DNA of 64,000 nucleotides from Candidatus Sysuiplasmataceae archaeon (GTDB lineage Archaea > Thermoplasmatota > Thermoplasmata > Sysuiplasmatales > Sysuiplasmataceae). The translations under genes and the position numbers were made by a program. Positions 9,455 through 57,964 of the stretch are shown here, in pieces. Position 1 is the first letter of the stretch. The number at the start of each line of letters is the position of its first letter. The notes under the pieces were generated by a model. That model saw only the letters and a list, made by a program, of their open reading frames with translations, searched no databases and had not been told where the DNA came from. The stretch is from the NCBI GenBank assembly GCA_046706185.1, contig JBJKPR010000002.1, forward strand, positions 31,433 to 95,432. Direction: 5' to 3'.

Positions 9455-9694
9455 GGGCAGCCGCCCCGGCAGTTGTTGGCGGACATGATGCGGCCGTCCG
9501 GTAGAGAATGTGACATACAGCGCAAGTGCATCCCATTTTCACTAATGCGGCAATCCTTACTTAAGTCTTATGTGGGTAGCTGACATTTGTCTGACATTGC
9601 TGTTGCACACACCAAGTAGCGCGGAACGGAGGGGAAGACTGGAACGTGTGAATGATTAAATGTTTTCCTGCGCTTCTAGCATGATGGTGCTCCA

Positions 9695-10330
9695 TTGAAA
9701 AGGCCAGACATCACGGTCAACTGCGCCGCTTCGATTGACGGAAAAATCTCCACAGCCCGAAGGAAGATGATCGGCATTTCGGACGAGGCAGACTTGAGAA
9801 GGGTGATGAAGCTAAGGGGGGAGCATAGTGCAATTGCGGTGGGCATCGGGACTATACTTGCTGACGATCCTTCTCTCACGCTCAGGGGAGAGGAAAGTGG
9901 AGGGCAGCAGCCAGCAAAAGTAGTGTTTGACTCAGACGGCAGAACACCGGCCACAGCGAGGGTGCTCAAAGGCGGTGCGACATACATAGTTACATCATCG
10001 TCGTGCAGGAAGCGCGTCGGGAGAGCCGTGATGCTCAGATGCGGAGCGAAAAAGGTGGACATCCCCCGTGCTCTGGAGATGCTCTACGACAGAGGGATAA
10101 GGTCAATGCTCGTAGAGGGGGGAGGAGAGATCATTTTCGAGCTTGCAAGGTTGCATATGATAGACAGGCTGTCGGTATATATTTCGCCCGTCATAATAGG
10201 TGGCAGAAGCGCTCCGACCATTGCAGACGGCAGGGGATTTGAGAGCGAGGCGGACTTTGCGAGGTTCAGGCTGCTTTCTGCGGGCGTGTTCGGTGATGGT
10301 GTTCTTGCCGAATATGAGAGGGCGGACTGA
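9695..10330 (+). CDS. 2,5-diamino-6-ribosylamino-4(3H)-pyrimidinone 5'-phosphate reductase (archaeal RibD-C / RibG-type reductase)
   Basis: DHFR-like RibD C-terminal domain (ITVNCAASIDGKI...LVEGGGEI). Confidence 0.7.
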   Translation: MKRPDITVNCAASIDGKISTARRKMIGISDEADLRRVMKLRGEHSAIAVGIGTILADDPSLTLRGEESGGQQPAKVVFDSDGRTPATARVLKGGATYIVTSSSCRKRVGRAVMLRCGAKKVDIPRALEMLYDRGIRSMLVEGGGEIIFELARLHMIDRLSVYISPVIIGGRSAPTIADGRGFESEADFARFRLLSAGVFGDGVLAEYERAD

Positions 10331-10342
10331 AAAGAGGGTGGC

Positions 10343-10831
10343 TTGCCAGTGACGACGGGCACGGAGGCTGAACAGGACAGGATCAGGTTCATTGCGGACA
10401 ATATGCTCGGCAGGCTCGCAAGATGGCTCAGGATAATGGGATACGACACGGTCTATGTCAGGTCTGGAGAGGACAGCGAGATAATACGCATCTCGGAATC
10501 TGAGAACAGGGTAATACTCACCAGGGACAGGCAGATGATGATGAGAAGGGGCGTCAATGCATTCTTCATCGAGGAGATACAGACTGAGAAACAGCTGGAT
10601 AGTGTTACAGCACGGTTCAACCTCCCTTTCAGGGAGGACGCCATGAGATGCAGCTTCTGCAACGGGCAGCTGCACCGGAGGGGAAAGGAGGAATTGAAGG
10701 ATATTGTCCCTGAGGGGGTGTTTGAAAGAAATGAACTCTTCTATCAGTGCACTTCGTGCATGAAGGTATACTGGCGCGGGTCACACTGGAAAAGGATAGA
10801 GCAGGTTATTGAGAGAGCCACGAGTCACTGA
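10343..10831 (+). CDS. Mut7-C RNase domain protein (DUF82, PIN-like) with C-terminal zinc ribbon
   Basis: RFIADNMLGRLARWLRIMGYDT signature of DUF82. Terminal CSFCNGQL...CTSC zinc ribbon. Confidence 0.65.
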   Translation: MPVTTGTEAEQDRIRFIADNMLGRLARWLRIMGYDTVYVRSGEDSEIIRISESENRVILTRDRQMMMRRGVNAFFIEEIQTEKQLDSVTARFNLPFREDAMRCSFCNGQLHRRGKEELKDIVPEGVFERNELFYQCTSCMKVYWRGSHWKRIEQVIERATSH

Positions 10832-34295: not shown

Positions 34296-34436
34296 GAGAG
34301 TTCCAGCCGCGCACTGCAATGGCAATCCCGTTCTCATCAAATAAGCCTTCAGCAGGACCGGATGCGATTATCTCACGCCTTTTCCCCGCAAAAGAATTTA
34401 AAATGATGCACACTAACCTCAGGCTGGTGCTGCAAA

Positions 34437-34877
34437 TTGAGGCTCCTATTCATTCACGCGGACAAGATGTCCTATGAAGTCAAATCAAAAACGAAGGCCG
34501 CAGAGGACATACAAGACAGCGAGAGAAAAGGTTCGATGGATGAGGTGCTTGTATGCTTTACCGCCGTCGAGAAGGGGGACGCAGCAAAAGGGAAGCCGCT
34601 GATTGAGAAGGCCATGGAAAACATAAGGGAAGTCGCCAGCACAGTAAAGGCAGAGAACCTGATGATTTACCCTTACGCCCACCTTTCATCCTCCCTTGCC
34701 CCTCCTGCCGAGGCGGTCGGAGTTCTCAAGGATATCGAGAAGCTGGCGGCAGAGGAGTTCCACACGAAGAGGTCTCCATTCGGATGGTACAAGGCATTCA
34801 CAATCACCTGCAAGGGCCACCCGCTTTCAGAGCTGTCGAGACAGGTCGTTGTCGAAGGGCAGGAGGGGATGAAGTAA
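34437..34877 (+). CDS. thrS: threonyl-tRNA synthetase N-terminal editing domain (archaeal D-Tyr-tRNA deacylase-like), ending at an in-frame TAA
   Basis: Archaeal ThrRS editing-domain features (MRLLFIHAD..., FHTKRSPFGWYKAF). Same frame as the downstream catalytic ORF, with a single TAA between them. Confidence 0.7.
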   Translation: MRLLFIHADKMSYEVKSKTKAAEDIQDSERKGSMDEVLVCFTAVEKGDAAKGKPLIEKAMENIREVASTVKAENLMIYPYAHLSSSLAPPAEAVGVLKDIEKLAAEEFHTKRSPFGWYKAFTITCKGHPLSELSRQVVVEGQEGMK

Positions 34878-34964
34878 GGGGAGGACTGGGACTTCGTCCT
34901 GACTAGGGAGGAGAGGTTTGTCAGGCCGGAGGACTACAGGCCCGAAAGCAAATGTTTTGAATCC

Positions 34965-36278
34965 ATGCTCAGGAAGGAGGCTCTCAAGGAGCAGGTAGGA
35001 AGCAGCGAGGCTCCTGAATACCTCAAACTGTGCAGGAAATTCGGTATCTCATGGGAGAGGATGAGCGACATAGGGCACGAGGTGTACCACCCTGCCGCTG
35101 CGTTGATATTCGACCTAAGCGCCGACTATGCAAAACAGGTTGTCACAAGCTTCGGTCTCTCTGTTTTCTCAGTCAAGGGCACCAACATGTTCAATCTCTC
35201 TGAACCTGCTGTGAGAGAGCATGCAGAGCTGTTCGGTGACAGGCTCTATACAATTGAGTCTGACAACAGGGACTTTGTCCTCAGATATGCGGCCTGCCAC
35301 CAGCAGTTCTCGATGATGAGCGGCTGGAACATCAGCTACAGACAGATGCCTGTTTCCGCCTTCGAGATAGCTGATGCATACAGGTACGAGCAGTCTGGCG
35401 AGACAATGCTTCTCTTCAGGCTAAGGCGGCTCAACATGCCTGACCTGCATGTGCTGTGCAGAGACATAAAGGAGGCGTACCGGTGGTTTACGACCATTCA
35501 CAGGCAGGTGTACAGCGAAGTTACGAAGATCGGCACAGACTATGAGATGCTGATCAATGTCAGCTCGGGCAGGGCATTTGAGGAAAACAGGCAATTCATA
35601 CTCTCGCTCCTGAATGAAAGGAACAAAGACTGCCTGATACATGTCTACCCTGAGGGTGCCAATTTCTACTGGACAGTAAACATAGAATATCATCTCCTTG
35701 ACCAGATGGGAAGGGCGAGGGAGGTGGGCACGGTCCAGATCGACGTCGGGAATGCAAAGCGTTTCAATATCACCTATGCCGACGAGCAGGGAAAAAAGCA
35801 ATATCCGATCATACTGCACACTGCGATTGTCGGTACTATCGAGAGGTTCATGTACGCCCTGTTCGACCAGGCCCTCCAGAGGGCTGAAAAGACAGGGAAG
35901 CCTGGATACCTTCCCTACTGGATATCCCCCGAACAGGTGAGGCTTCTGCCAATAACGGACAGGCATCTCACGAGAGCGAAGGAGATTGCCTCGGAGATGA
36001 CAAAGCACAAAGTAAGGGCTGGCATAGATGACAGGCCGCTGACGATCTCGAAAAAGGTACGGGAGGCCAAGCAGGACTGGGTCAGCTACGTGATCGTTAT
36101 TGGTGACAGGGAACTCGAAGGTAATGCAATCAAAGTATACGACAGGGAAAGTGACAGCAACAGGGACATGACGGTCCAGGAGCTCCTTTCGGAGTGCGGC
36201 GCAAGGCAGGATGACTACCCTTTCAAGCCGCTCTACCTGCCCGCGGAGCTGTCGAAGAGAGTTGATTTCTCCCTGTAA
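34965..36278 (+). CDS. thrS: threonyl-tRNA synthetase catalytic and anticodon-binding domains
   Basis: Class II motifs (FRLRRLNMPDLH and HTAIVGTIERFM) and a C-terminal anticodon-binding domain. In frame with the upstream editing-domain ORF. Confidence 0.85.
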   Translation: MLRKEALKEQVGSSEAPEYLKLCRKFGISWERMSDIGHEVYHPAAALIFDLSADYAKQVVTSFGLSVFSVKGTNMFNLSEPAVREHAELFGDRLYTIESDNRDFVLRYAACHQQFSMMSGWNISYRQMPVSAFEIADAYRYEQSGETMLLFRLRRLNMPDLHVLCRDIKEAYRWFTTIHRQVYSEVTKIGTDYEMLINVSSGRAFEENRQFILSLLNERNKDCLIHVYPEGANFYWTVNIEYHLLDQMGRAREVGTVQIDVGNAKRFNITYADEQGKKQYPIILHTAIVGTIERFMYALFDQALQRAEKTGKPGYLPYWISPEQVRLLPITDRHLTRAKEIASEMTKHKVRAGIDDRPLTISKKVREAKQDWVSYVIVIGDRELEGNAIKVYDRESDSNRDMTVQELLSECGARQDDYPFKPLYLPAELSKRVDFSL

Positions 36279-57875: not shown

Positions 57876-57964
57876 GCCGCAGTAACTCAGACTGGGAGAG
57901 TGTGAGACTGAAGTGTTTACTCACGGATATCTCAAAGTCGCCGGTTCAAATCCGGTCTGCGGCA
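57876..57964 (+). tRNA. tRNA-Phe (anticodon GAA) with a 15-nt intron between positions 37 and 38
   Basis: Manual fold: acceptor GCCGCAG/CUGCGGC, D arm ACUC-AGACUGGGA-GAGU, anticodon stem UGAGA/UCUCA with loop CUGAAG..A, T arm GCCGG-UUCAAAU-CCGGU, discriminator A. CCA is not encoded. Confidence 0.85.

Follow-up and report, generated by a model that had tools for sequence, protein, structure and literature searches.

The editing domain of archaeal threonyl-tRNA synthetase (ThrRS) removes serine from tRNA(Thr) (PMC3845328), and in Crenarchaea aminoacylation and this proofreading activity are split between ThrRS-cat and the trans-acting ThrRS-ed (PMC3592468 and PMC7373986, summarising Korencic et al. 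2004). Here, we analyze an archaeal-type thrS gene located at positions 34437-36278 (plus strand) of a 64,000-nucleotide stretch of contig JBJKPR010000002.1 (assembly GCA_046706185.1, a Candidatus Sysuiplasmataceae archaeon; the whole stretch is hereafter the window), in which a single in-frame TAA (34875-34877, codon 147) divides the editing part from the catalytic part. We tentatively interpret this arrangement, with a probability of roughly 45%, as a real, evolutionarily young fission of thrS, yielding an editing domain that would act in trans and a synthetase shortened at its N-terminus, which would start at the conserved Met177.

A single in-frame stop codon divides thrS

The frame used by the upstream open reading frame (ORF1) continues without a stop from 34878 to 36278, and the earliest ATG, GTG or TTG 3' of the TAA is the ATG at 34965, which leaves a gap of 29 codons (87 nt) before the downstream reading frame (ORF2). 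When the closest full-length homologue was compared to the window using tblastn, a single 613-residue alignment, with 84% identity, spanned the TAA; thus, the ORF1/ORF2 split is not a chance juxtaposition of reading frames. A preliminary description of this DNA had placed one in-frame TAA between an editing and a catalytic ORF at these same coordinates, and both the sequence and the Pfam domains bear this out. The elements of the locus are as follows.

34396-34403 (+): TATA-like AT-rich element ATTTAAAA, ~35 nt 5' of the ORF1 start, putative promoter of a bicistronic thrS, as read from the sequence
34437-34877 (+): ORF1 (thrS-ed), 146 residues, TTG start, complete archaeal ThrRS editing domain with a D-aminoacyl-tRNA-deacylase-like fold (PF08915, NF003068)
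34875-34877 (+): in-frame TAA, codon 147, read directly from the sequence
34878-34964 (+): spacer of 29 stop-free codons without an in-frame start codon, homologous to the N-terminal hairpin and helix of the catalytic module
34887-34892 (+): codons 151-152, TGG GAC (Trp-Asp), where relatives have AGG, AGT or AAG followed by TAC, TAT or CAC
34965-36278 (+): ORF2 (thrS-cat), 437 residues, class II catalytic core and anticodon-binding domain, with the ATG corresponding to the conserved Met177, ending with TAA

The nearest homologues in the protein database are single proteins of 602-619 residues that contain all three domains and show at most 84% identity. They come from the Thermoplasmata metagenome-assembled genomes (MAGs) YP4.bin116, YF1.bin95 and TL1-5.bin102, followed by 'Candidatus Sysuiplasma' and Methanomassiliicoccales. 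The window and the relatives share the gene order TFB - PfkB kinase - thrS - short-chain dehydrogenase (SDR) - ThiI (- FtsZ) and, accordingly, the locus is the orthologous thrS rather than a spare copy; a tblastn search with the full-length homologue detected no second thrS within the 64-kb window. Separate proteins of 146 and 437 residues are already listed in the public annotation of the same 97-kb contig, each known from that contig only. Owing to the TAA at codon 147, the locus does not encode all domains on one polypeptide of ~613 residues, the organization that defines NF003068 and PRK03991.

The TTG start of thrS is common to the window and all seven relatives examined (L001, L003, L004 and L017-L020), and residue 11 is a conserved second Met codon that is taken as the start by some gene callers.

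ORF1 and ORF2 correspond to autonomous modules

ORF1 matches the Pfam editing-domain profile over its entire length (PF08915, profile positions 1-137 of 137, E = 1.5e-50) and covers positions 1-142 of the 613-position NCBIfam model of archaeal ThrRS (NF003068). Its boundaries are those of crystallised stand-alone editing-domain constructs of 136-151 residues (4RRF, 2HL1, 1Y2Q and 4RR6), and none of the 40 columns that are invariant in 17 relatives is altered. Compared to the model of crenarchaeal ThrRS-ed (NF011500), ORF1 aligns with positions 1-134 of 387 and scores 151 bits, below the cut-off of 362, and so falls outside that family; because the match stops at position 134, ORF1 lacks both the anticodon-binding domain and the core remnant.

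ORF2 matches the class II core (PF00587) and the HGTP anticodon-binding domain (PF03129) and, taken alone, aligns with positions 183-612 of 613 in NF003068 with a score of 524 bits, above the equivalog cut-off of 484. Residue 177, where ORF2 would start, is Met in 106 of the 119 homologues and Val in the other 13. None of the 217 ORF2 columns invariant in the 17 relatives is altered, and singleton residues amount to 1 of 437, compared to a mean of 3.1 for the other sequences in a set of 120. In alignment coordinates, ORF2 starts ~18 residues ahead of the site aligned with the first residue of 1EVK, a truncated E. coli ThrRS chain, and contains the whole region present in that chain; the truncated E. 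coli enzyme (1EVK/1EVL) reportedly still charges tRNA, with the editing activity lost. ORF2 also aligns end to end with natural catalytic-only archaeal-type ThrRS of 447-495 residues, and its domain content matches this class.

Archaeal-type ThrRS without an editing domain (447-495 residues; P0282-P0313) are widespread outside Crenarchaeota, occurring in Nitrososphaerales and in Dojkabacteria, which are bacteria of the candidate phyla radiation. An editing-less ThrRS paralogue in Methanocella/Methanooceanicella is annotated as 'aminoacyl-tRNA ligase-related protein'.

The stop codon maps to the inter-domain hinge

The column that contains the TAA is occupied by Lys in 63 of the 119 homologues and by Glu, Arg, Gln or other residues in the remainder, and a stop at codon 147 was found in none of them. 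The preliminary description had suggested looking for a sense codon at this position in related thrS genes, and the 7 closest relatives indeed have AAG, AAA or CAG. In the AlphaFold2 model of the closest full-length homologue (P0001; mean predicted local distance difference test score, pLDDT, of 86), residues 141-147 are the sole low-confidence segment between domains (pLDDT <50), with the TAA at residue 147, and residues 148-180 are ordered (pLDDT 91-96), with a predicted strand at 151-155 and a predicted helix at 172-181. The TAA thus sits at the natural boundary between the modules, but the nearest start codon that could be used is 29 codons further 3'. The interval from the end of the editing domain to Met177 (141-176) comprises only ~36 of the 613 codons, so that a randomly placed error would seldom land in this interval.

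The spacer is a conserved hairpin with unprecedented residues

The preliminary description had read the 29 intervening codons as a protein-like linker. The count of 29 and the absence of stops hold (the spacer peptide quoted there has 32 residues because it includes the first three of ORF2), whereas the characterization as a linker does not: these codons encode the conserved, structured N-terminal hairpin of the catalytic module, given that the segment is ordered in the AlphaFold2 model and is kept by natural catalytic-only ThrRS. The consensus of the spacer among the homologues is G-E-x-x-[YF]-[FLI]-V-L-T-P-D-G...P-E-x-[YF]...C-F-x-x-M, and the hairpin motif (aromatic-x-V/I-L/I-T-P-D-G ... 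P-E-x-F/Y, before the K-E-A helix) is kept in 8 of the 10 aligned catalytic-only proteins.

In the window, the hairpin is unusual at the amino acid level. Five of its 29 residues are never seen in the 119 homologues, the highest number among the 120 sequences (mean of the others 0.42, maximum 3), and no other stretch of 29 codons in the protein is as rich in unique residues; by an atypicality score, it ranks first of 120 (z = 2.6). The most conspicuous of these residues is Asp152, at a position occupied by Phe, Tyr or His in all 119 fused homologues and, at the equivalent position, by Tyr, Phe or Trp in all 8 catalytic-only enzymes that have the segment. The neighbouring Trp151 is seen once in the 119 homologues. 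An odd spacer flanked by two pristine ORFs is the pattern expected if the spacer is untranslated while both ORFs are still translated.

Evidence for and against a young gene fission

In the fission scenario, a nonsense change that turned a Lys codon (AAR) into TAA, within the disordered hinge that follows the editing domain, in a Thermoplasmata lineage related to 'Sysuiplasma', would have converted a single gene for a 613-residue archaeal ThrRS into two cistrons of one transcript. The ORF1 product would be a free-standing 146-residue editing domain, predicted to hydrolyse Ser-tRNA(Thr) in trans. Translation of ORF2 would begin at the pre-existing internal Met177 codon, either by internal initiation or by re-initiation 87 nt past the stop, and would yield a 437-residue synthetase that is predicted to charge tRNA(Thr) but to have no proofreading activity. 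The 29 codons of the spacer would no longer be translated and would have begun to drift. The anatomy and orthology of the locus, its domain boundaries, the intact state of both ORFs and the oddity of the spacer are observed here, whereas a genuine base call, translation of ORF2 and activity of both products are inferred for this scenario.

Fission is favoured because the stop falls in the sole disordered inter-domain segment and both products match autonomous modules, because invariant columns are unchanged in ORF1 and ORF2 (0/40 and 0/217, respectively) while the spacer is an outlier, and because the locus is orthologous, contains the sole thrS in the window, is free of a general quality problem and has a crenarchaeal precedent. 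The composition of the sequence 5' of the ORF2 start gives a weak hint of a start signal: of the 21 nt that lead up to the ATG at 34965, 14 are A or T, an AT-richness matched by 3.8% of the 21-mers in the gene and not statistically remarkable, and four consecutive minor codons ending in A or T are found there, at positions where relatives have G/C-ending codons.

Several observations weigh against this interpretation, beginning with the expression and function of the two products. No Shine-Dalgarno-like motif precedes the ATG at 34965 (such motifs are rare before genes in the window), and no AT-rich promoter-like box can be discerned at a suitable distance before it. If translated from Met177, ORF2 begins after the hairpin and, in this respect, departs from most of the natural catalytic-only ThrRS aligned (8 of 10). 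ORF1 is without a tRNA anchor, as it lacks the anticodon-binding domain that crenarchaeal ThrRS-ed has kept.

The spacer itself gives a mixed signal. The majority of the conserved hairpin residues are still intact; at the nucleotide level, the spacer is not an outlier among the 7 relatives (3/27 private changes compared to 0-4/28), a comparison of low power; and the ratio of spacer to ORF2 atypicality, 2.36, is not the highest in the set (maximum 2.60). In the analysis of nonsynonymous to synonymous substitution rates (dN/dS), dS was >1.4 or undefined for every relative, that is, synonymous sites are saturated and, consequently, the stop cannot be dated. Furthermore, the stop and the oddest codon changes are clustered within 43 nt and all fall on first codon positions: A>T at 34875 (codon 147), 34887 (codon 151) and 34917 (codon 161), and T>G at 34890 (codon 152). 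Elsewhere in the window, private changes are mostly GC>AT transitions; A>T is absent from the 20 such changes of the thrS ORFs and makes up ~3 of the 35 counted in three neighbouring genes (same strand). Drift, a single complex mutation and a local fault in sequencing or assembly would account for such a cluster equally well.

Finally, no second sequence of this species was found in the protein database, GTDB representative genomes or JGI metagenomes: the protein database contains nothing between 84% and 100% identity, an exact look-up with ORF2 matched no contig, and the GTDB representatives and JGI metagenomes yielded distant relatives only. With the sequence carried by one assembly only, the base call is provisional.

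Alternative explanations

The preliminary description had listed four possibilities without ranking them, namely, a genuine split, a recent nonsense mutation, programmed readthrough and an assembly or sequencing error. In the present analysis, readthrough found no support, and a real split and an artefact are both viable.

The alternative that survives best, although we consider it rather unlikely, is a sequencing or assembly artefact, whereby the organism has an intact, ordinary 613-residue thrS, and the TAA, probably Trp151 and Asp152, and possibly Phe161 are wrong base calls over ~45 nt of poorly covered or misassembled sequence in a MAG. The confinement of the stop and the three oddest codon changes to 43 nt, with A>T and T>G transversions that are unlike the other private changes in the window, is what such a fault would produce, and the perfect conservation of the remainder of thrS points in the same direction. 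Coverage is low in related MAGs from similar studies (contig names give cov 1.5-10), broken thrS genes confined to one assembly are known elsewhere (L021, L022 and L024, see below), and the sequence analyzed here is likewise present in one assembly only. However, a random error would seldom be expected in the 141-147 hinge, and clusters of substitutions are atypical of errors in a short-read consensus. Nor is the assembly generally poor, considering that the coding density of the window is 91%, that no other gene in it is split in the same frame or otherwise broken, and that neither the flanking genes nor the rest of thrS carry a surplus of private changes. Moreover, if the stop alone were wrong, the intact enzyme would have Asp at a site that is aromatic in 127 of 127 sequences.

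A real but non-adaptive nonsense allele appears quite improbable. In this case, the stop would be very recent, perhaps the result of one complex event, and would be either unfixed or backed up by another ThrRS, the gene being a fresh pseudogene. A cluster of changes derived from one event would carry no information on elapsed time, and the pristine state of both ORFs is also how a brand-new lesion would look; furthermore, ORF2 has no visible translation signal, and the inspection covered 64 kb of the genome only. Conversely, by synteny, the locus is orthologous to the one thrS that the relatives have, the 64-kb window contains no second thrS, and the stop occurs exactly where a split is most tolerable, which is unexpected for a random disabling mutation.

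Programmed readthrough or recoding of the TAA, such that the full-length 613-residue enzyme would still be the main product, is highly improbable. The frame is open on both sides of the stop and most of the conserved hairpin residues after it remain, as readthrough would predict, but none of the 119 homologues and, at the DNA level, none of the 7 close relatives has this stop; the stability of the predicted RNA folds does not exceed that of shuffled controls (z = +0.26 and -0.38), which by itself does not disprove readthrough; the window encodes no suppressor tRNA (tRNA-Phe only); thrS itself ends with a TAA at the C-terminus conserved among relatives; and Asp152, at a site that is otherwise always aromatic, speaks against selection on the hairpin.

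A decayed pseudogene is contradicted by the absence of change in any of the 257 invariant columns (17 relatives), and reassignment of TAA, which the preliminary description had already considered unlikely, can be rejected, given that TAA ends thrS at the C-terminus conserved in all relatives and also ends 12 of the 67 long ORFs in a crude ORF set.

Broken thrS genes in other assemblies

The search with ORF1 retrieved many short proteins that contain PF08915 only, most of which are fragments at contig ends. Among these, the 24-member P0180 cluster was rejected as a set of free-standing editing domains because its members are contig-end fragments, and P0131 (L025, DAHVBB010000001.1) and P0178 (L023, CP070773.1, Bathyarchaeota) were rejected as truncated or free-standing thrS because of runs of N inside the gene. 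The latter two cases call for caution when stand-alone editing domains are counted from protein databases.

Three AT-rich thrS genes are broken within the linker, each in a single contig or assembly. The first (L024:2501-3559; ENA ERZ27302838, k141_296915; 37% GC), for which Methanobrevibacter fragments are among the closest relatives listed, carries a TAA in frame at codon 153, in the linker that follows the editing domain and just 5' of the hairpin strand (...ERKPS-stop-WQILEGD...), and its downstream ORF is called from the homologue of Met177. The other two (L021:3001-4751 and L022:3001-4844) are frameshifted in the same linker beside A-runs, with editing ORFs of 151 residues and catalytic ORFs of 432 and 436 residues, respectively; in L021, stop and start overlap in TTGA. 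For L021 and L022, a real split and a homopolymer error are equally likely. Because these three genes were chosen by the search itself, they do not demonstrate an enrichment of breaks in the linker; they show only that linker breaks occur in assemblies, real or otherwise.

Separately, a 2.2-kb Logan contig (in the cluster of P0283) encodes proteins of 185 and 447 residues that belong to the 90% identity cluster of the 633-residue Nanoarchaeum equitans ThrRS, apparently another broken thrS.

Other features of the window

The other adjacent ORF pairs in the window that share a frame were examined as candidate split genes and proved to be independent genes: RibD_C and Mut7-C, a Na/H exchanger and its neighbour, two ABC ATPases, and the E subunit of ATP synthase and its neighbour. 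On the minus strand, positions 9676-10740 contain three consecutive stop-free segments (95, 122 and 135 codons) that are separated only by TAG, have no Pfam match and lie antisense to the plus-strand RibD_C (9695-10330) and Mut7-C (10343-10831) genes; these segments are most likely a by-product of coding on the opposite strand rather than a pyrrolysine gene. The sole tRNA in the window, tRNA-Phe(GAA) at 57876-57964, is 89 nt long, which exceeds the standard length and suggests an intron.

Implications and comparison with known systems

If the thrS fission is real, it represents a new variant of split ThrRS with trans-editing, a type that is already known. It would imply that one point mutation in a disordered hinge can turn cis-proofreading into trans-proofreading, that a conserved internal Met codon already present can act as a new start, and that the catalytic module can do without its N-terminal hairpin. 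The locus would then be a natural experiment on the disassembly of an essential multidomain translation enzyme; it would offer a minimal trans-editing factor of natural origin, as well as a model, open to testing, of how the crenarchaeal ThrRS-cat/ThrRS-ed pair arose. If it is an artefact, it serves only as a caution that broken essential genes in MAGs need confirmation at the level of reads.

A broader possibility, which we regard as doubtful, is that fission of archaeal ThrRS at the hinge is recurrent and viable in nature, the window capturing its earliest stage, a living intermediate toward the crenarchaeal ThrRS-cat/ThrRS-ed pair. Under such recurrent fission, the bare 146-residue editing domain would work in trans without a tRNA anchor and the hairpin-less synthetase would be made from Met177; the linker breaks in L024, L021 and L022 would fit this possibility if they, too, are real.

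Like the crenarchaeal ThrRS-cat/ThrRS-ed pair, the window would place aminoacylation and Ser-tRNA(Thr) proofreading on two polypeptides, and the editing protein carries PF08915 in both cases. In contrast to that pair, the two parts in the window are adjacent and in frame, parted by one stop and 29 former coding codons, and the fused gene is present in all relatives of the host, a Thermoplasmata archaeon. ORF1 further differs from crenarchaeal ThrRS-ed in being a bare 146-residue domain without a core remnant or an anticodon-binding domain and, unlike the natural catalytic-only enzymes, ORF2 starting from Met177 is without the N-terminal hairpin.

With the canonical fused archaeal ThrRS (NF003068 and PRK03991, ~613 residues), the gene shares the domain order, the length of 613 codons including the stop, the locus and the TTG start; what sets it apart is the TAA at codon 147 and a hairpin with Trp151 and Asp152. 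The engineered modules (1Y2Q, 2HL1, 4RRF and 4RR6, from P. abyssi, M. jannaschii and A. pernix, and 1EVK/1EVL, from E. coli) have the same boundaries as ORF1 or correspond to a region within ORF2, respectively; these are laboratory truncations, however, whereas in the window the truncation is encoded in the genome. As with the alanyl-tRNA synthetase (AlaRS) of Nanoarchaeum equitans (PMC8887476), an essential synthetase is present as two polypeptides; that enzyme is a different one, and the split in the window, in contrast, parts an accessory proofreading module from a self-sufficient core.

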